The notes beneath the pieces were generated by a model. That model was not told the DNA's origin, did no database searches, and was given only the letters and a program-made list of their open reading frames with translations. This document shows, in pieces, positions 11 to 42,404 of a DNA stretch of 61,884 bases. Source of the stretch: an uncultured Gammaproteobacteria bacterium (GTDB lineage Bacteria > Cyanobacteriota > Vampirovibrionia > Gastranaerophilales > UBA9971); the NCBI GenBank assembly GCA_964558005.1, contig CAZLCO010000007.1, positions 1 through 61,884 on the forward strand, given 5' to 3'. Each line of letters starts with the position of its first letter. Position 1 is the stretch's first letter. The translations under genes and the position numbers were made by a program.

Positions 11-58
11 CTGGATAGATTCCCACGTCGCTCGCTGCGCTCGCTCCTCGGAATGACA
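11..58 (-). repeat. CGTC/TGTC-tagged REP-like palindrome, long type, right-end orientation
   Basis: CTGGATAGATTCCCACGTCG...CTCCTCGGAATGACA; same arms as copies at 6677, 7977, 41625 and 42366. Confidence 0.85.
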
Positions 59-4092: not shown

Positions 4093-5919
4093 ATGATTAA
4101 AATAAAAACACCTCATGGAAATATAGCGGAAATAATTTCAGCCGAAGATAAAGAAATCGATTATAAAGACATTGAAGCTCTCGATATCCTCCGTCACAGC
4201 ACAGCGCACGTAATGGCGCAGGCCGTACAGCGGCTTTTCCCGAATGCGAAAATAGCAATCGGGCCTAATATAGAAAACGGGTTTTATTATGATTTCGACA
4301 TTCCTGACCACTCGCTGAGCGTAGATGATTTGCCAAAAATCGAAGAAGAAATGAAAAATATAATCAAGGAAAACCAGTATTTTGAAAGAAGAGAAATACA
4401 TAATGTCCCGGAAGTACTTACAGACTTTCGGGATAAAGGTGAAATCTACAAAGCAGAGCTGTTAATGGAACATGCGCAGGAAAACCCGACGCTTTATGTT
4501 ATGACAAAAGACGGAAAAGATATCTGGAACGATTTTTGCCGAGGGCCGCACCTGCCGGAAACCAAACTCATCAAGGCATTTAAGTTATTAAGTACAGCTG
4601 GCGCATACTGGCGGGGCGATGAAAAAAATAAAATGCTGCAAAGAATTTATGCAACTGCTTTCTGGACTAAGGATGACCTTAAGGAATACCTTAATTTTCT
4701 TGCAGAAGCTGAAAAAAGGGACCACAGGAAGCTCTCCAACCAGCTTGACCTGTTCAGCGTCAAGGAAGAAGTAGGCCCCGGGCTTGTCCTGTGGCATCCG
4801 AATCTTGCTTTTGTCAGGGAACAGATAGAAAACTACTGGCGCAGCGAGCACAGAAAGCGCGGTTACGTGATAGTCAACACCCCGCATATGGCAAAAAAAC
4901 AGCTTTGGGATATATCAGGGCATACAGAGTTCTATGATGACAATATGTACTACCTTAACGTGGAAGAGGATAAGGACTACGTCCTCAAACCAATGAATTG
5001 CCCGTTCCATATGCTGATTTACAAGTCAAAAAGGCAGAGCTACAGGAATTTACCGCTGCGCATGGCAGAGCTGGGAACGGTTTACAGGAAGGAACGTTCC
5101 GGCACACTCCACGGGCTATCAAGGGTGCGGGGCTTTACGCAGGACGATGCTCATATATTCTGCACTCCCGATCAATTTGTCGATGAAATTCACAAAATAA
5201 TTGACCTGGTTGATTACACAATGAAGATATTTGAGCTGAGCTATGAGGTTGAGTTGTCAACAAGGCCTGAGGACTTTGTCGGGGAAATAGAAAACTGGAA
5301 CAGGGCAGAAGCAGGACTAAAAGAAGCACTTGAGCAAAAAGGCATAGAATACCAGCTCAATGAAGGAGATGGCGCATTCTACGGGCCTAAAATAGACTTC
5401 AAGCTAAAGGACGCAATCGGCAGGACGTGGCAGGCCGCTACCATTCAGCTTGATTTTAACCTGCCCGTACGTTTTGACCTGAAATATACTGACAAAGACG
5501 GCTCTTTGCAGACCCCGGTAATGCTCCACAGGGTAATATTTGGCTCAATGGAGCGTTTTGTGGGTTCATTAATCGAGCATTACGCCGGCGCATTCCCGCT
5601 CTGGCTTGCTCCGGTGCAGGCAGTACTTATCCCGATTGCTGACAGGCATATTGAATTTGCTGACAGCGTTTACGCAAAGATGAAAGAGGCCGGACTGCGG
5701 GTTGAAGTGGACGACAGGAGCGAGAGCATGAATAGCAAAATCCGTGATGCCCAGAACCGCAAAATACAATATATGTTCGTAATCGGCGACAAGGAAATCG
5801 AGGCCAACTCGCTCGCCGTGCGTACACGTCAGGGTCAGCAGGGCGTGCAGGCGGTGGATGAGGTTATAAATACTTTAACAAAAGAAGCTTTGCCTCTTGA
5901 GAAGTCGCAGCCTGCATAA
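4093..5919 (+). CDS. thrS: Threonine--tRNA ligase
   Basis: LRHSTAH, DFCRGPH, KPMNCP, RVRGFTQDDAH, FYGPKID. Confidence 0.98.
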   Translation: MIKIKTPHGNIAEIISAEDKEIDYKDIEALDILRHSTAHVMAQAVQRLFPNAKIAIGPNIENGFYYDFDIPDHSLSVDDLPKIEEEMKNIIKENQYFERREIHNVPEVLTDFRDKGEIYKAELLMEHAQENPTLYVMTKDGKDIWNDFCRGPHLPETKLIKAFKLLSTAGAYWRGDEKNKMLQRIYATAFWTKDDLKEYLNFLAEAEKRDHRKLSNQLDLFSVKEEVGPGLVLWHPNLAFVREQIENYWRSEHRKRGYVIVNTPHMAKKQLWDISGHTEFYDDNMYYLNVEEDKDYVLKPMNCPFHMLIYKSKRQSYRNLPLRMAELGTVYRKERSGTLHGLSRVRGFTQDDAHIFCTPDQFVDEIHKIIDLVDYTMKIFELSYEVELSTRPEDFVGEIENWNRAEAGLKEALEQKGIEYQLNEGDGAFYGPKIDFKLKDAIGRTWQAATIQLDFNLPVRFDLKYTDKDGSLQTPVMLHRVIFGSMERFVGSLIEHYAGAFPLWLAPVQAVLIPIADRHIEFADSVYAKMKEAGLRVEVDDRSESMNSKIRDAQNRKIQYMFVIGDKEIEANSLAVRTRQGQQGVQAVDEVINTLTKEALPLEKSQPA

Positions 5920-6643
5920 AGTTTCTGACCTCTGCGTCGTTGACACTTTCTCCGGCGGATATTCTCCTTATGCTGTCCTTGATTAGCTTTAGGGAAGTTT
6001 TCGATTTAGCGGCCAGCTCGTTGCAGTAGCTGATAAACTCTTTTTCAGGCAGGATTCTTGATACAATGCCTAGGTTTAACGCCTCGTCCGATTTAATGCG
6101 CCTGCCTGTTGAAATTATTTCAAAGGCTCTCGTCCTGCCCACAAGTTTTAACAGTCTGTGAATCCCGCCGTATCCGGGAATTAAGCCTATATTGACCTCG
6201 TTTAAGCAGAACACAGCTTCGTGTGAGGTCAGAACAACGTCGCATGCGAGGGCAAGTTCGAAAAATCCTCCGATTACCAGCCCGTCAATACCGATAATTA
6301 CAGGTTTAGGAAATTCCTCTATTTTTTCAAGTAATTCCCTGTTTTTTTCCAGCTTTTCCCTGAATAATTCCTCTGCTTTTCCTTGTGATATCCCTTCAGG
6401 TTCAAGAAGATTTTTGTATTTTTTAAGGTTAACCCCGGCGGAAAAAATTTTTTGCCCTGTTTTTTTCGAAACGCCGCATTGTGCCCTGATTAATACGGTT
6501 TTTATTTCATCTTCCCGCTCAAACTCGTCCAATGCCTGACTTATCCTGCTGAATGTGTCTTCTTCGATAAGGTTGAGGGTATCCGGACTGCTGAGTATTA
6601 TTTCGCCTATAGCGGCGGTTTTTTGTATAATTAAAATTGTCAT
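5864..6643 (-). CDS. Enoyl-CoA hydratase/isomerase (crotonase) family
   Basis: FSAGVNL, IGGFFELALACD, EVNIGLIPGYGG; start moved to ATG 6643 because the longer ORF reads through a repeat; 3' end overlaps thrS by 56 nt. Confidence 0.88.
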   Translation of the reverse strand: MTILIIQKTAAIGEIILSSPDTLNLIEEDTFSRISQALDEFEREDEIKTVLIRAQCGVSKKTGQKIFSAGVNLKKYKNLLEPEGISQGKAEELFREKLEKNRELLEKIEEFPKPVIIGIDGLVIGGFFELALACDVVLTSHEAVFCLNEVNIGLIPGYGGIHRLLKLVGRTRAFEIISTGRRIKSDEALNLGIVSRILPEKEFISYCNELAAKSKTSLKLIKDSIRRISAGESVNDAEVRNFMQAATSQEAKLLLLKYL

Positions 6644-6676
6644 AGTAATATTGATTATATGATAATATTTACCGCG

Positions 6677-6722
6677 TGTCATTGCGAGAAGCGACCGCAG
6701 GGAGCGACGTGGCAATCTATCC
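6677..6722 (+). repeat. Long CGTC-type palindrome, left end of cassette 1
   Basis: TGTCATTGCGAG-(variable hairpin)-GCGACGTGGCAATCTATCC. Confidence 0.88.
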
Positions 6723-6754
6723 GAGGAGAGATTTAAGCCTAGCACCGCTACACC

Positions 6755-6781
6755 CATCACCCTGAACTTGTTTCAGGGTCT
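6755..6781 (+). repeat. Short 27-nt palindrome, inner left end of cassette 1
   Basis: CATCACCCTGAACTTGTTTCAGGGTCT; inverted partner at 7931-7957. Confidence 0.85.
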
Positions 6782-6800
6782 GATTAATAGAGGATAACAT

Positions 6801-7955
6801 ATGGATAAGTATAAAATTAAATATATTTTTTCTTTTGATGGTTTAGAAATGGAACTACCTTGTAGTTTTTTGTTAAAAAAATCTATAGTAACGTATAAAA
6901 AAGACTTCAAAGGAACAGAAATAGTATTCACACTATATAATCCAAAACCAACTGAGCCTATAGATGAAGATAGTCATATACATATTGTTAAAGATAAAGG
7001 TCATGAAGGCGGTCCATTATCTATGAAAGGTGAAGATTTTGATTTAAAATCAGCGATAGGTTTTATAGAAATTAATAAATGGGAACAAGAATTAGATATA
7101 ACATTTGAACTTGAAAAAGAAAAAAATTTTTGTTTTGAAGTAGAATCGGAAATTTTAAACTTTATAAATGAAGATATAACAGCAAATTTAAATAATTGGC
7201 TTTCAATATTACAAGATAATTTTTTCAAAAGTAATTGGTTATCCTTACCAAAATTTGTCTTTAAAAAAAATGACCAAAGGCCTATTCAAGATGAAAATAA
7301 TATCAGTCATATTAATTTTACTTGTTATAAAAATGAAGAAAAAGTAGTCGGCCCATGTGGAATATTTAGTGTTAAATGTAATGTTATTGTAAGGGATATA
7401 AAATCAAGCCTTACTACTTTTGATGAAACATTAAACAAAGCAATAAAGGATTTTTTAGATAATATTGAAGATAAAAAACATGAAATATATACCCCTCGAG
7501 AGCTTCTTCTTTTAGCTGACTATGAGAGGAAAATAAACAGGTATAAACTTGCTTTATTATTAATGGCTATGGCTGTAGAAATTTCTGCCAAACTTGTTAT
7601 TGAAATATACGGAGAGCAAATTCATAAATACTTTTTATCGAAAAAAGTAGAAATTTCAATATTTAATTTAATAAAAGACGTTATGCCTGACATAATAAGT
7701 AACAATGATTTTAATTCATTAGATAAATTAAATGTAAAGCTAGACTTATTAGAGCAATTATTCATGATAAGAAATAAAATTGCACATGAGGGTAAAACTT
7801 ATTATCAAAAAAATGAAAAAAAACGTTTTATCGAAAACGAAAGTGAAATTTTAGACTATTTTAAATTTTCACAAGATTTTGTTGATAATAAAATTCCCAA
7901 AATAATAGATTTAATAAATGATAACCGTAAAGATGCTGAAACAAGTTCAGCATGA
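6801..7955 (+). CDS. AT-rich protein with C-terminal HEPN-like domain (putative RNase/defence)
   Basis: ALLLMAMAVE helix followed by RNKIAH (RxxxxH); AGAGGA RBS; much AT-richer than neighbours. Confidence 0.7.
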   Translation: MDKYKIKYIFSFDGLEMELPCSFLLKKSIVTYKKDFKGTEIVFTLYNPKPTEPIDEDSHIHIVKDKGHEGGPLSMKGEDFDLKSAIGFIEINKWEQELDITFELEKEKNFCFEVESEILNFINEDITANLNNWLSILQDNFFKSNWLSLPKFVFKKNDQRPIQDENNISHINFTCYKNEEKVVGPCGIFSVKCNVIVRDIKSSLTTFDETLNKAIKDFLDNIEDKKHEIYTPRELLLLADYERKINRYKLALLLMAMAVEISAKLVIEIYGEQIHKYFLSKKVEISIFNLIKDVMPDIISNNDFNSLDKLNVKLDLLEQLFMIRNKIAHEGKTYYQKNEKKRFIENESEILDYFKFSQDFVDNKIPKIIDLINDNRKDAETSSA

Positions 7956-7957
7956 CG
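7931..7957 (-). repeat. Short 27-nt palindrome, inner right end of cassette 1; contains the gene's TGA stop
   Basis: AGATGCTGAAACAAGTTCAGCATGACG; 22/27 identical to the left copy, with compensatory stem changes. Confidence 0.85.
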
Positions 7958-7976
7958 TAATTGTTTACATGAAACA

Positions 7977-8043
7977 CTGGATAGATTGCCACGTCGGGCC
8001 CGCCCCGCCGATGGCGGGAACGGGAGCCCTCCTCGCAATGACA
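7977..8043 (-). repeat. Long CGTC-type palindrome, right end of cassette 1
   Basis: CTGGATAGATTGCCACGTCG...CTCCTCGCAATGACA, inverted relative to 6677-6722. Confidence 0.88.
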
Positions 8044-8059
8044 AAAAGGAAAAAACATC

Positions 8060-9169
8060 ATGCCAAGAACTCCAATACTGCAAACTCGCCGGGATGCCTG
8101 GATCGAAGTTGACCTCGGCAGCGTCGAGCACAATATAAAAGCCCTTAAATCCAGGCTATCCCCCGGAACAAAACTGCTGGCGGTTGTCAAGGCAGACGCA
8201 TACGGCCATGGCTCAACCACGATTGCTCCGATACTGGTAGCGTCCGGGGTTGACATGCTGGGCGTAGCCTCGGTGGACGAGGGTATTGAATTAAGAGAGG
8301 CGGGCATAAACATTCCCATACTTGTGCTGGGGGCAACACCCGATTGGGCTGTGTGTTCAGCGGTAGAAAATGACCTTGAGCTTTCTATATTCGCACAGGA
8401 GCATATAAATGCCTGTATTTATACATATAACAGATTAAACATAAAGTCAAAAGTTCATATTAAAATTGATACGGGCATGCACAGGATAGGTATTCCTTAT
8501 AAACAGGCGCAGGGTTTTATAAAAGAGGTACAGGATACAAAAGAAATAAGTCTGCAAGGTATTTTTTCTCATCTTGCCTGTGCGGAAAAGCCTGAAATAA
8601 CTATGAAACAAAATCAGGCGTTTAACAGTCTTATAGAACAGGTGGAAAGCAGGGATAAATTAAGTATTCACCTTGTTAATACAGCGGGCATGCTGGATTA
8701 TGAACAGATGCATTATGATATAGCGAGAGTGGGAATCGGTATTTACGGACTGATTCCGGGGTTCAGGCAGGCAATGGGCCTCAAAGGCAGAATAACATAT
8801 ATTAAGGAAGTGCCGGAAGGTTGCGGAATTAGCTATGAATATAGTTATGTGACAGACAGGCCAGCCAAAGTCGCTACAATACCTGTTGGTTACGCTGACG
8901 GCGTGTCAAGAAATCTTTCTAATAAGATTTGCGGAATATTAAAGGGCAAAAAAGTAAGCCAGATAGGCAATATAACAATGGACCAGATGATGTTCGACAT
9001 AACGGGGGTTGATGATGTGCATACGGGCGACATAATAACCCTGCTGGGAGAAGCGGACGGGGAGTGTATTGCTGTTAGTGAGTGGGCAGAAAAATTAAAT
9101 ACAATAAATTATGAAATTACATGCCGTCTGAAAGTAAGGCTTCCTCGGGTCTATACAAGAAGTAATTAA
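8060..9169 (+). CDS. alr: Alanine racemase
   Basis: AVVKADAYGHG PLP lysine, KIDTGMHRIG, GYADG, ITMDQ. Confidence 0.97.
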   Translation: MPRTPILQTRRDAWIEVDLGSVEHNIKALKSRLSPGTKLLAVVKADAYGHGSTTIAPILVASGVDMLGVASVDEGIELREAGINIPILVLGATPDWAVCSAVENDLELSIFAQEHINACIYTYNRLNIKSKVHIKIDTGMHRIGIPYKQAQGFIKEVQDTKEISLQGIFSHLACAEKPEITMKQNQAFNSLIEQVESRDKLSIHLVNTAGMLDYEQMHYDIARVGIGIYGLIPGFRQAMGLKGRITYIKEVPEGCGISYEYSYVTDRPAKVATIPVGYADGVSRNLSNKICGILKGKKVSQIGNITMDQMMFDITGVDDVHTGDIITLLGEADGECIAVSEWAEKLNTINYEITCRLKVRLPRVYTRSN

Positions 9170-41624: not shown

Positions 41625-41664
41625 TGTCATTGCGAGGAGCGAAGCGACGTGGCAATCTGTCCAG
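41625..41664 (+). repeat. Long CGTC-type palindrome, left end of cassette 2
   Basis: TGTCATTGCGAGGAGCGAAGCGACGTGGCAATCTGTCCAG. Confidence 0.88.
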
Positions 41665-41717
41665 AGTTTTTAATCAGCAATATTTTGTTTTATAATTTCT
41701 AAAATGAGGACTGTTTA

Positions 41718-42359
41718 ATGAAGTTGGATGAAACAATACTAAAGTGCTTTGAAGAGCTAGTAAGCAAAGCAAACACGCCGGAATATTTTTTTGATGAAGA
41801 TGATAATGAAAAATTCTATGAATGGGCAACTTCTGTAATAAGTTTGTTTCAAAGAATATTTAATTCAAATGATATTCAACTTGTAAATTTTATAGAACAA
41901 TATAATGAATTTAAAGTAAGTCCATTTGAGCATGAACAAAAATTCAAAAATTGCAGAGGAATTTTAAATTCTGCATACAATGACTACAAAAACGGTTATC
42001 TGTTCAAAGTTAAAACCTTAATCAGTGCAGAAGTACTGGATAATGTTATTGAACAAGCCGAAGAACTTTATAAAAATAATTACAAAGAAGCAGCCTGTAT
42101 TATTGCAGGTGTTGCGCTTGAAACAACGCTAAGAAAATTATGTGAAGATAATGGAATTGAGTCTGCGAAAATGGATAAAATGAACGCTGATTTGGCTAAA
42201 GCAAATAAATATAATAAATCAAAACAAAAACAAATAACTGCATGGGCAGGGTTGAGAAATGACGCTGCTCATGGAGATTGGGACAGCGCAAATGATAATC
42301 AGGTCAAGCCAATGATTGACGGTGTAAATGCTTTTATGGCTGATTATTTAAACCCATAA
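41718..42359 (+). CDS. AT-rich HEPN/DUF4145-like protein
   Basis: A.EL.....KEAACIIAGVALETTLRKLC, WAGLRNDAAHG (RxxxxH); GAGGA RBS. Confidence 0.82.
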   Translation: MKLDETILKCFEELVSKANTPEYFFDEDDNEKFYEWATSVISLFQRIFNSNDIQLVNFIEQYNEFKVSPFEHEQKFKNCRGILNSAYNDYKNGYLFKVKTLISAEVLDNVIEQAEELYKNNYKEAACIIAGVALETTLRKLCEDNGIESAKMDKMNADLAKANKYNKSKQKQITAWAGLRNDAAHGDWDSANDNQVKPMIDGVNAFMADYLNP

Positions 42360-42365
42360 TTGGGA

Positions 42366-42404
42366 AGATTGCGGCGTCGGGCTAAAGCCCTCCTCGCAAT
42401 GACA
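42366..42404 (-). repeat. Long CGTC-type palindrome, right end of cassette 2
   Basis: AGATTGCGGCGTCGGGCTAAAGCCCTCCTCGCAATGACA, inverted relative to 41625. Confidence 0.85.

Follow-up and report, generated by a model that had tools for sequence, protein, structure and literature searches.

The question raised by this locus is how a single AT-rich gene came to stand between inverted palindromic repeats just ahead of alr, and what kind of element those repeats form. An earlier note had proposed a non-autonomous, REP-bounded gene cassette at this place in the window, by which we mean the whole stretch of 61,884 nucleotides analysed. Taken as a whole, the reading that we consider probable is that of an insertion in the alr leader that carries HEPN-type cargo, ends in tags-out composite repeats of the Ssn type and is one of nine such units in the genome.

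An accessory-gene insertion in the alr leader

The cassette runs from ~6677/6678 to 8042/8043 and consists of a 384-aa ORF inside inverted composite repeats, between a crotonase gene and alr. The ORF has a GC content of ~25%, and values within the cassette are 0.22-0.28 as against 0.45-0.54 in the flanks. Its features are as follows.

5864..6643, minus strand: enoyl-CoA hydratase gene, host flank (ECH_1, 2e-37)
6637..6666, plus strand: promoter-like site, TTGTCA, 18 nt, GATAAT (10/12 consensus matches, by consensus only)
6677..6722, plus strand: left outer repeat (type A), TGTCAT tag facing outward, ATTGC/GCAAT outer stem, variable centre, GGCAATCTATCC tail
6756..6781, plus strand: left inner repeat (type C), ATCA tag, 8-bp stem ACCCTGAA/TTCAGGGT, 5-nt loop, TCT tail
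6801-7955, plus strand: ORF of 384 aa, containing MIRNKIAHEG
7482..7916, plus strand: predicted HEPN domain (residues ~228-372), RNKIAH motif at 7770-7787
7931..7956, minus strand: right inner repeat (type C), CGTCAT tag on the minus strand, DNA fold z -3.4
7979..8043, minus strand: right outer repeat (type A), long G+C-rich central hairpin, tag outward, alr start codon 17 nt beyond
8060..9169, plus strand: alanine racemase gene alr, host flank (3e-62 and 1e-42)

The earlier note had placed the segment as an insertion between the crotonase gene and alr, and comparison of this junction among relatives agrees with it. In G001, a genome of the same genus, the start codons of crotonase and alr are only 56 bp apart and no repeats are present, so the cassette is an insertion. 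Moreover, no A repeat was found anywhere in G001 by a strict pattern, and therefore its empty site reflects absence of the element and not its excision. In G003 the thrS-ECH-alr-clpC synteny is retained, with unrelated content and zero repeats at the crotonase-alr junction, and in none of 80 named Gastranaerophilales/Melainabacteria alr loci did we find crotonase, thrS or the ORF beside alr. A 141-bp repeat doublet lies upstream of alr in G009 and is missing from its congeners G006 and G011. The ORF is not syntenic in relatives; synteny without the repeats would have spoken against a cassette. Judged by these sequence comparisons, an accessory gene has been inserted at window 6678-8042, in the alr leader of a Gastranaerophilales (Melainabacteria) genome. 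No target-site duplication was visible at 6677/8043 or against the empty site, the congener being only ~73% identical in the flanking proteins.

The assembly of the region is matched by an independent Logan contig of 2865 nt, which covers 5918-8782 with zero differences, although it may share the window's sample: the Logan contigs used come from one study of microbial mat metagenomes, of which run X1 may be the source sample. None of these contigs bridges across the cassette as an empty-site join, which is uninformative on excision. Apparent joints from 6780/6782 to 7931 and from 7958 to 8022 were rejected, as they represent short contigs that derive from elsewhere or from other organisms and contain two adjacent repeat copies. 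No contig of run X2 matched the cassette, and run X3 gave repeat-sized pieces only.

Composite ends made of two hairpin modules

Each end of the cassette is built from an outer (A) and an inner (C) repeat. The outer pair was recovered by inverted-repeat search as arms of 23 nt at 6700-6722/7979-8001 (complementarity 91%) and further arms of 33 nt at 6659-6691/8029-8061 (73%), and the inner pair as arms of 25 nt at 6757-6781/7931-7955 (84%). The earlier note had observed that the outer pair keeps its arms while the centre varies, and indeed this centre is 18 nt long in one arm and 37 nt in the other. The left inner repeat has a DNA fold of -7.2 kcal/mol (z -3.2) and the right outer repeat one of -16.2 kcal/mol (z -2.1), and the 5'-side A repeats are weak folders alone (z -1.2 and +0.9). 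Furthermore, the right inner repeat (7931-7956) encodes the last eight codons of the ORF (KDAETSSA) and its TGA, in accordance with the suggestion that the gene's end derives from the repeat. What did not hold is the description of the repeats as two nested pairs: other cassette ends in the genome show the outer-linker-inner order too, and outer and inner repeats are better described as two hairpin modules of one composite end, with (C/T)GTCA(T/C) tags that point outward.

REP-class hairpins with a YGTCA tag

The repeat strings are strongly enriched in the window in comparison with dinucleotide shuffles: GTCATTGCGAG occurs 5 times with up to 1 mismatch (0.53 expected), CTGAAACAAGTTCAG 4 times with up to 2 mismatches (0.13 expected) and CGACGTGGCAATC 4 times with up to 1 mismatch (0.02 expected). 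The compensatory stem changes noticed between the two inner copies extend genome-wide, since the two variable stem positions of type C are Watson-Crick matched in 25 of 29 copies (CC/GG 11, TG/CA 10, TT/AA 2, TC/GA 1 and CA/TG 1). Among the 46 A copies the outer stem is ATTGC/GCAAT in 35 and ATTCC/GGAAT in 6. Immediately 5' of GTCA these A copies have T in 40 cases and C in 5, whereas the 29 C copies have C in 17 cases and T in 12. Of 17 pairs of neighbouring A copies within 1300 nt of each other, 14 have their tags outward. About 15 of the 46 A copies of this genome (G000) are solos, one of which lies at the start of the contig:

18..57, minus strand: solo type A repeat, ATTCC/GGAAT variant

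In G016 and G029, A copies mostly stand alone or in short doublets amid ordinary genes. Tandem arrays also occur, in which the junction (A-, 16 nt, A+) is constant and was found identical twice.

From the tag and the hairpin form, we assign the repeats to (C/T)GTCA-tagged REP-class hairpins, within the superclass of CGTC-tagged REPs, dRS3 and NTS; the earlier note's appeal to CGTC-tagged REP palindromes is borne out by a CGTC or TGTC tag across A and C copies. A literature search with the repeat strings and two peptide read-outs returned unrelated primers only. According to the available text of Di Nocera 2013 (PMC3733652), pairs with their tags outside are HH dimers, the predominant arrangement for CGTC REPs, and no transposase is associated with these. 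This bears on the possibility that a RAYT (Y1/HUH) transposase mobilised the cassette as a REPIN-like element holding the gene in its loop. Two inverted REPs and a spacer are the REPIN architecture (PMC3337134, as far as its available text goes), but the tag here is YGTC and not GTAG, and the best Y1_Tnp score in this 96% complete genome was 17.1 bits, below the cut-off of 23, whereas controls were matched. Repeats of the RAYT kind were therefore ruled out as a candidate class, and we regard this explanation as extremely improbable.

A predicted HEPN-type RNase as cargo

The HEPN motif is Rx4-6H, often RN....H, and it opens the last long core helix. In 13 sequences of the ORF family, E260, L320, R324, N325, K326 and H329 are invariant, and R324, N325, K326 and H329 sit in helix 314-330 of the AF2 model (pLDDT 79). 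The family is rare, with 14 matches among 1.84 billion representatives. With the model, VIA returned 1ufb at Z 10.6 (rmsd 2.5, 113 aligned), 2hsb at 10.5 and the sacsin HEPN at 9.8 among 12 rows at Z >=8, values to be read knowing that helical bundles below Z 13 can match by arrangement alone. The top five rows span Z 9.7-10.6 over residues 226-371, and three of them have HEPN in the title (2hsb, 3o10 and 1wol); the other two, 1ufb and 2jpu, we take to be HEPN-family entries as well. Foldseek on the whole model gave 2hsb at a probability of 0.99 and a TM of 0.65 on the target as its sole high-probability row, with zero rows at E 0.001 or better. The predicted model forms the all-alpha up-down helical bundle by which the HEPN superfamily is recognised.

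Pfam gave no HEPN-clan match to the ORF at E up to 1, and neither NCBIfam nor PADLOC had a family or match for it; curated HEPN profiles miss the ORF because its family is too divergent for them. A cluster look-up of seven relatives returned 'hypothetical protein' or no name for all. Nevertheless, the invariant RNKxxH motif and the fold matches lead us to assign the C-terminal domain as HEPN, as the motif had suggested to the earlier reader, and this domain makes a toxin-type or defence-effector RNase the most likely product. The N-terminal domain (~residues 1-225) is predicted to be beta-rich and has no known relatives; in the ESM Atlas its best score was 0.76, to clusters without names that gave no lead. 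In another Cyanobacteriota MAG a homologue lies between ORFs that by eye are putatively HEPN-like and putatively nucleotidyltransferase-like.

Probable expression from the host promoter

The promoter-like stretch at 6637..6666 is conserved at the empty site of G001; it is probably the native alr promoter, which would then read through the cassette. No terminator-like site was found within the cassette. Because the cargo lacks a terminator and lies downstream of a host promoter-like site, its expression is probably coupled to that of alr by read-through. Two units in the genome misfit simple read-through: the cargo of the A-bounded cassette C40 and the third small GIY-YIG gene (C2, with GTCATCCTGAG-variant repeats) are both antisense to both of their neighbours.

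Such an arrangement also suits an explanation in which the hairpins act mainly as RNA, being processing or stabilising structures that insulate cargo and host genes in the manner of REPs and rRNA intervening sequences. The position of cassettes in operons and leaders, mostly co-directional, is in its favour, as are the lack of a terminator-like site in the HEPN cassette, the complementarity of its two arms over 23 nt at 91% and the argument of Di Nocera 2013 (PMC3733652), in its available text, that REPs are transcribed. On the other hand, SsnA was found neither to bind nor to cut RNA (Chenal et al. 2025, PMC11893778, available text), an Rfam search of 6500-8200 gave zero matches at E up to 1, and 23S_rRNA_IVP genes were not found in repeat-rich relatives. 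A role mainly at the RNA level, although compatible with the preferred reading, seems to us rather unlikely. As for rRNA intervening-sequence ORFs themselves (23S_rRNA_IVP, PF05635), there are none in G000 and they occur in only 4 of 41 relatives, none of those 4 with A repeats.

Repeat-gene-repeat units vary among related genomes

The genome has nine repeat-gene-repeat units including the HEPN-gene cassette, and cassettes are spread over at least 8 contigs. Their cargo is low in GC and comprises AbiJ-like/PDC-S32 (AbiJ_NTD4), PDC-S31/DUF2971, UDG-like, GIY-YIG and HEPN-like genes and membrane proteins. The units sit at purQ-purL, at a nuoH-nuoI-like site and upstream of pheS, alr and sbcC, several of them in operons and mostly co-directional. 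Had the repeats flanked ordinary genes just as often, the bracket would have meant little, but a count over the genome found only 8 of 2110 ORFs bracketed, all of them low-GC accessory genes (0.1 to 19th percentile) and zero housekeeping. Among ORFs below 30% GC, 5/84 are bracketed, as against 3/2026 of the others. The window itself holds a second unit:

41626..42403, plus strand: second cassette, tags-out type A repeats around a 213-aa ORF (41718-42359) with LRNDAAHG

It lies 38 nt ahead of sbcC, and its ORF has a weak Pfam HEPN match (E 0.067). Upstream of sbcC, where G000 has this HEPN-like cargo, G003 carries a DUF4062 cargo; the sbcC-proximal repeats of the two genomes are identical except at 2 of 37 positions and stand 38 nt (G000) and 41 nt (G003) ahead of the ATG. 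In G016 the equivalent place is taken by a repeat doublet without cargo, 42 nt ahead of the ATG, and G001 has nothing within the 510 nt available. In the case of the GIY-YIG unit, the orthologous element is found at purQ/purL in G000, G010 and G002, and at purC/purS in G008. Repeat-gene-repeat units hence vary in presence, position and cargo among the related genomes compared.

These comparisons weigh on the simplest alternative, that single REP-like hairpins pile up in slack DNA around acquired AT-rich genes and that the bracket is a by-product. The solos and short doublets of G016, G029 and G000 described above would be expected under it, as would the fact that none of five loci of ORF homologues is bracketed by a repeat pair although A repeats lie within 400 nt downstream of the homologue at 3 of the 5. 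Against this, close pairs are tags-out in 14 of 17 cases regardless of the cargo strand, the GIY-YIG unit occupies another intergenic site along with both of its repeats, the sbcC-proximal repeat is retained though the cargo differs, and empty doublets are polymorphic as whole units. We consider such a passive origin improbable, and slightly more so than the RNA-level explanation.

Integron-like cassettes, with site-specific recombination at the repeats by a tyrosine recombinase, would account for the tandem arrays with a constant A-, 16 nt, A+ junction and for seemingly promoterless cargo that is expressed from outside and varies at one site. However, each gene is bracketed by an inverted pair instead of there being one direct-oriented attC per cassette, and the cassettes are scattered through operons with no single platform, so we hold this explanation to be very unlikely.

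Small GIY-YIG genes and the Ssn system

The genome holds three small GIY-YIG genes, each flanked by tagged hairpins of the same kind. The small GIY-YIG protein matches Pfam GIY-YIG over residues 5-78 of 111 (6e-14) and, weakly, the PDB entry 1zg2 (UPF0213; E 6e-4). In the relatives, inverted A/C-type repeats lie on both sides of the GIY-YIG homologue at 15 of 18 distinct loci; of the remaining three, one has repeats on one side and two have none. Among 120 repeat-bearing loci from many phyla, a homologue lies within 250 nt of the repeats at 3, two of these homologues at 58-60% identity and the third, apparently frameshifted, at 51-54%.

Chenal et al. 2025 (PMC11893778) describe, in the available text, small GIY-YIG Ssn nucleases that bind and cut NTS/Ssn-related motifs in ssDNA; the opposite strand of the motif was found to escape cutting. 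The same association of GIY-YIG genes with flanking repeats is reported there, the Ssn role outside Neisseria is stated as unknown, and the repeat-ssnA-repeat arrangement as a mobile element is raised but, in that text, not tested. Our literature search found no later paper on Ssn, and the available text of an earlier work on GIY-YIG (Dunin-Horkawicz 2006, PMC1564403) does not mention flanking repeats. As a class, these motifs are hairpins of 20-50 nt with a directional HGTCWY tag at the 5' end, and those of the present genome carry such a tag, as TGTCAT in A copies and as YGTCAY in C copies (Y in 29/29). None of the 46 A copies or 29 C copies matches the published degenerate SRM pattern, which matches 15 other sites in the genome, roughly 8 of which represent a third type of hairpin (YGTCACCCCGSAC...GGGGTCT). 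The repeats fit the published operational SRM definition because they flank small single-domain GIY-YIG genes, and on these sequence grounds we place them with the Ssn/SRM system, which the earlier note did not name. By analogy, the three Ssn-like nucleases would bind the cassette hairpins as ssDNA and cut just outside the tag.

The genome also has ComEC and DprA homologues; as these are present in 10 and 11 of 14 control genomes, they lend weak support at best to competence.

Possible origin and turnover of the units

Taken by itself, the cassette is well supported as an example of a system described only recently, and it is not unprecedented. The idea of a REP-bounded cassette stands as regards the bracket, the accessory cargo and the insertion, but not as regards movement as a unit: because 0/5 homologue loci are bracketed, there is no sign that this ORF travels with its repeats. 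It is possible, and we suggest it tentatively, that the tags-out doublets are a mobile or recombinogenic unit between whose arms genes are captured or exchanged. This could take place by recombination at the repeats, or with Ssn ssDNA cuts setting the boundaries. As only one strand of the motif is cut according to Chenal et al. (PMC11893778, available text), two tags-out motifs would give one cut per strand and no excision by themselves.

A broader proposal, which we rate as distinctly less likely than such exchange, is that tags-out Ssn-type doublets serve as dispersed landing pads in many phyla, with promoterless accessory genes swapped between their arms. The GIY-YIG Ssn nuclease would then cut ssDNA just outside each tag and so fix the boundaries, and the captured genes, many of them defence-like, would become wired into host operons and leaders, in what could be a gene-cassette system without an integrase.

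The interest of this lineage is the comparative evidence that it gives, namely that repeat-bounded units change position, presence and cargo, and that HEPN, AbiJ-like and other genes of defence type are among the cargo and lie within essential operons. If Ssn cutting drives this turnover, it would explain CGTC-tagged REPs without a transposase (Di Nocera et al. 2013) and represent a new route for the shuffling of bacterial defence genes.

Comparison with known systems

Stand-alone HEPN toxins and abortive-infection proteins (HEPN-MNT, AbiV, Csm6 domains) share with the cassette protein the fold match and an Rx4-6H motif with N after R. In contrast to them, it adds a 225-residue N-terminal domain without relatives, and the cassette has no adjacent antitoxin-like gene inside.

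In integrons, each cassette has one directly oriented attC, and the cassettes are served by a dedicated integrase at a single platform. Like the units described here, they contain single promoterless ORFs and imperfect palindromes with conserved ends and variable centres, form arrays with variable cargo and are expressed from an outside promoter; by contrast, the repeats here form inverted pairs and the cassettes are dispersed.

The REPIN-RAYT system (Bertels and Rainey 2011, available text) resembles the present one in having two inverted REPs per unit, intragenomic repeat populations and an associated single-copy nuclease gene that is itself repeat-flanked. The enzyme is Y1/HUH there and GIY-YIG here, the tag there is GTAG, and a RAYT was not found in this genome.

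With CGTC-tagged REPs (Neisseria dRS3, Rickettsia RPE-4/6; PMC3733652, available text) the cassette repeats share a CGTC or TGTC tag at one end, the predominance of HH dimers and the absence of an associated transposase. The inner C repeat, with 8 bp and 5 nt, fits their 8-9-bp stem and 4-5-nt loop, whereas the outer A repeat shares the tag with them and departs in its interrupted stem and large centre. The five phyla given for CGTC repeats in that text do not include Cyanobacteria, and the repeats described here are in a Cyanobacteriota lineage.

A close relationship is that to Ssn/NTS (PMC11893778, available text). In both cases a small single-domain GIY-YIG gene lies between inverted hairpin repeats with a 5' tag of the HGTCWY type, the repeats are dispersed and also surround other genes ('NTS-gene-NTS'), copy number is patchy among relatives and the motif is directional. 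Here, unlike in Neisseria, the repeats occur in a Melainabacterium of a microbial mat, and its commonest motif (A) is an interrupted stem with a nested variable hairpin that the published pattern misses. Finally, the genes bracketed here are single AT-rich ORFs, defence-like or of unknown function, in operons and leaders, and their identity differs between orthologous sites.

The cassette at the crotonase-alr junction

The segment at window positions 6678-8042 is a real and well-defined feature, in which a single ORF of low GC content (0.22-0.28, against 0.45-0.54 in the flanks) lies between inverted repeats; the repeat blocks, the ORF and the flanking genes of the earlier note were all recovered at its coordinates. 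Its features are as follows.

Cassette flank, minus strand: enoyl-CoA hydratase (crotonase) gene
6659-6691 and 8029-8061: outer inverted repeat, first block (33 nt, 73%)
6700-6722 and 7979-8001: outer inverted repeat, second block (23 nt, 91%)
6757-6781 and 7931-7955: inner inverted repeat arms (25 nt, 84%)
6801-7955: 384-aa ORF, the only one between the repeats
Cassette flank, plus strand: alanine racemase gene (alr)

The repeat motifs are far commoner in the window than in shuffled sequence. Furthermore, a separately assembled public contig of 2865 nt, whose run may be the source sample, matches positions 5918-8782 with zero differences, so the junctions are not an artefact peculiar to one assembly. 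A terminator-like site was not found inside 6678-8042. A promoter-like site lies immediately to the left of the cassette and is kept in the empty site of the congener G001. A separate promoter-like match on the minus strand, at 6654-6682 (ATGACA, 17 nt, TATAAT; 11/12, by consensus only), has its -35 element in the head of the left outer repeat and is directed at the crotonase gene.

The 384-aa protein

Run in full over 1.84 billion representatives, HMMER returned 14 homologous proteins, six of them full length with 24-34% identity and all without a family name or annotated as hypothetical; none of the curated profiles matches the protein. In the alignment E260, L320, R324, N325, K326 and H329 are invariant, and E330, G331 and Y334 nearly so. 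In the AlphaFold model (13 sequences, pLDDT 79) the N-terminal part is rich in beta structure and the C-terminal part is helical, and in a fold search of 48,161 PDB representatives the five best rows span residues 226-371 (Z 10.6 to 9.7). Three of these carry HEPN in their titles (2hsb, sacsin HEPN and an ST0689 HEPN homologue), and the other two, TT1696 and SsR10, are presumably HEPN as well. HEPN toxins, Csm6, AbiA and AbiV are among the weaker rows, and 2hsb was the sole high-probability row in Foldseek. The HEPN assignment of the earlier note is thus supported by both the invariant residues of the RNKxxH region and the fold matches, and we conclude that the protein is a divergent member of the HEPN group. 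Judged by its motif, it is probably an RNase, and it may have a role in defence.

At none of five homologue loci is the gene bracketed by a repeat pair; outer-type repeats lie within 400 nt downstream at three of them. At one of the five, in another Cyanobacteriota MAG (locus L220, 2700-4500), a homologue with 32% identity sits in a low-GC island, flanked by a HEPN-like and a nucleotidyltransferase-like ORF, both identified by eye.

Structure and spread of the repeats

The genome (G000; 2.39 Mb in 117 contigs, 96% complete) carries 46 copies of the outer repeat (type A) and 29 of the inner repeat (type C). Type A consists of T followed by GTCATTGCGAGG, a centre of variable sequence, often forming a G+C hairpin, and CG(T/C)GGCAATCT; type C reads (C/T)GTCA(C/T)N-CTGAA-CTTGT-TTCAG-N(G/A)TCT. 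The compensatory stem changes proposed from the alr cassette hold genome-wide, as the two variable stem positions of type C are Watson-Crick paired in 25 of 29 copies and the type A stem ATTGC/GCAAT becomes ATTCC/GGAAT, on both sides together, in 6 copies. As DNA, type C folds strongly (z -3.2 and -3.4), the 3'-side copies of type A moderately (z -2.1) and its 5'-side copies poorly. The inverted arms could also have a role at the RNA level, which would be compatible with a gene cassette. Because the order outer repeat, ~30 nt, inner repeat was found again at other cassette ends, the two nested inverted pairs described earlier have real arms but are not separate pairs: they are a single composite end that is present twice, the second copy inverted.

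At least 120 contigs of many phyla (assigned by title) carry the exact outer motif; the matches listed include Chloroflexota, Bacillota, Bacteroidota, Pseudomonadota, Patescibacteria, Nitrospirota, Armatimonadota, Actinomycetota, Margulisiibacteriota and others. It is present in 21 of 41 relatives, with 0 to 166 copies per genome. G016, a relative from another family, has an outer-repeat subfamily of 56-57 nt with a long A+T-rich centre (GTCATTGCGAGCCATGAATCG...TTGCGTGGCAATC; loci L250-L259), found as solos among ordinary genes and as five direct-orientation copies in a phage-like stretch (L250).

Bracketed genes in the genome

Neighbouring type A repeats at most 1300 nt apart have their (C/T)GTCA tags outward in 14 of 17 pairs; two pairs, which have their tags inward and a 16-nt spacer, are tandem-array junctions, and one is direct. 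An ORF lies within nine of the tags-out pairs; the other five, whose arms are 31-77 nt apart, are empty. These empty doublets (120-155 bp, on contigs C21, C23, C27, C42 and C60) are REPIN- or MITE-like. Among 2110 non-overlapping ORFs of at least 100 aa, eight are bracketed, a ninth being missed as its frame runs through its repeat, and all have low GC. Of the ORFs below 30% GC, 5 of 84 are bracketed, versus 3 of 2026 others.

Cargo of the repeat-bounded units
C1 73480-74550 (L224), 34 nt upstream of pheS: AbiJ_NTD4 / PADLOC PDC-S32 protein (2e-94)
Window 41626-42403, 38 nt upstream of sbcC: 213-aa ORF with LRNDAAHG, type A repeats, tags outward; Pfam HEPN only at E 0.067
C66 2564-3418 (L227), nuoH to 4Fe-4S nuoI-like gene: UDG-superfamily ORF, 241 aa, GC 0.28, type A repeats, operon direction
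purQ-purL, C39 15204-16543 (L223 1705-3044): small GIY-YIG protein, in a tandem array that reads A+ GIY-YIG A-, 16 nt, A+ 271/289-aa membrane ORF A-, same 16 nt, A+, purL
DUF2971/PDC-S31 protein (4e-17)
Two HEPN-motif proteins, the 213-aa ORF above included
Three membrane or unknown proteins, the membrane ORF of the array included

Several units lie inside conserved gene strings (purQ-purL, with two in tandem, and nuoH/nuoI-like) or upstream of pheS, alr and sbcC, and the cargo is co-directional with at least one adjacent gene in eight of the nine A-bounded units, the exception being on C40. The pheS cassette has composite outer-plus-inner ends identical in type to those of the alr cassette. 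In the C39 array, the purQ frame and that of the second cargo both extend into repeats.

Insertion and turnover between relatives

By name, the MAGs with the best alr matches belong to Candidatus Gastranaerophilales or Melainabacteria, and none of these 80 loci preserves the cassette neighbourhood. In G001, from the same genus, the crotonase and alr starts are separated by 56 bp without a repeat. G003, from another genus of the family, preserves the order thrS-ECH-alr-clpC with 815 bp at the junction, also free of repeats. Because the junction is empty in one relative and has unrelated content in the other, the ORF is non-syntenic and the segment is, by this comparison, an insertion in the lineage of G000. 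Two points qualify this: the outer repeat has zero copies anywhere in G001 (strict pattern), and the flanks are too divergent for a base-exact junction or a visible target duplication. The G003 gap (L091 5024-5748) holds two paralogous ORFs of ~116 aa each, with no family.

Other sites differ in their load. The GIY-YIG unit (~70-73% protein identity) lies in purQ-purL in G000, G010 and G002 and in purC-purS in G008, with both repeats kept; beside it there is a membrane-protein unit in G000, a different 105-aa ORF in G002 and nothing in G010. Upstream of sbcC, the 213-aa HEPN-motif cargo of G000 is replaced in G003 by a 326-aa DUF4062 protein (1e-28), whereas the repeats next to the gene agree at all but 2 of 37 positions, ending 38 nt before the start codon in G000 and 41 nt before it in G003. 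In G016 the doublet, at 42 nt, is empty, and no repeat was found at this site in G001 and nine others; in three of these ten genomes less than 600 nt was available upstream. Finally, alr in G009 is preceded, at a distance of 34 nt, by an empty doublet of 141 bp which its congeners G006 and G011 lack. These locus comparisons show gain, loss, movement and re-loading of doublets and repeat-gene-repeat units over the divergence of the family.

Relation to Ssn nucleases and CGTC-tagged REPs

The small GIY-YIG gene is the only recurring cargo. In relatives, inverted repeats of A-type, A-variant or C-type stand on either side of its homologues at 15 of 18 distinct loci, on one side at another and on neither at two; the three copies in G000 are also repeat-flanked. 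Among the 120 cross-phylum loci listed, three have a GIY-YIG homologue by the repeats, two of them 58-60% identical and the third seemingly frameshifted (51-54%). This association is already published: Chenal et al. (2025, PMC11893778) describe Ssn proteins as single-domain GIY-YIG nucleases (cd10448) that bind the NTS (CGTCATTCCCGCGMAVGCGGGAATCYRG, the long form of dRS3) and Ssn-related motifs solely as single-stranded DNA and cut a few nucleotides upstream of the motif, leaving the reverse strand, dsDNA and RNA uncut. A motif is reported near 71% of ssnA homologues, and on both sides for 42%; in Neisseria genes are surrounded by NTS clusters, SsnA reduces transformation with NTS-gene-NTS DNA, and NTS-ssnA-NTS resembles an insertion sequence, whose mobility and role in other bacteria those authors leave open. 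The published degenerate pattern for these motifs matches none of the 46 A and 29 C repeats in G000. A third hairpin type, YGTCACCCCGSACTTGATSCGGGGTCT (e.g. C84 ~519, C44 ~1774, C23 ~13052), is the sole one in this genome that does.

Under the published cutting rule, tags-out motifs would lead to a single cut on each strand, in both cases just outside the unit. In DNA that enters single-stranded, such a cut would detach the unit from one of its flanks and would not excise it from a single strand; we therefore consider that exchange could run via homologous recombination, using both arms or one arm and one flank. The sbcC site, with its constant proximal arm, would fit such exchange, and the ComEC and DprA homologues in G000 give a slight hint of competence.

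The earlier reading, a gene cassette with a HEPN gene and REP-class palindromes, was close to correct and its features are real. The repeats belong to the Ssn system, published in 2025, and the element is thus of a known kind. New are the lineage of the host, a divergent form of the motif that evades the published search pattern, the defence-type single-gene cargo set in operons and leaders, and, at fixed sites, comparative evidence pointing to cargo exchange. No RAYT transposase was found in the 96% complete genome. Di Nocera et al. (2013, PMC3733652) class dRS3 and Rickettsia RPE-4/6 as CGTC-tagged REPs, which their account of the class characterizes by a tag that is sometimes TGTC, a stem of 8-9 bp, a loop of 4-5 nt, predominant tags-outside dimers and no associated transposase. 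The inner repeat fits this description, whereas the outer one agrees with it in tag and dimer habit and differs in its interrupted stem and nested hairpin.
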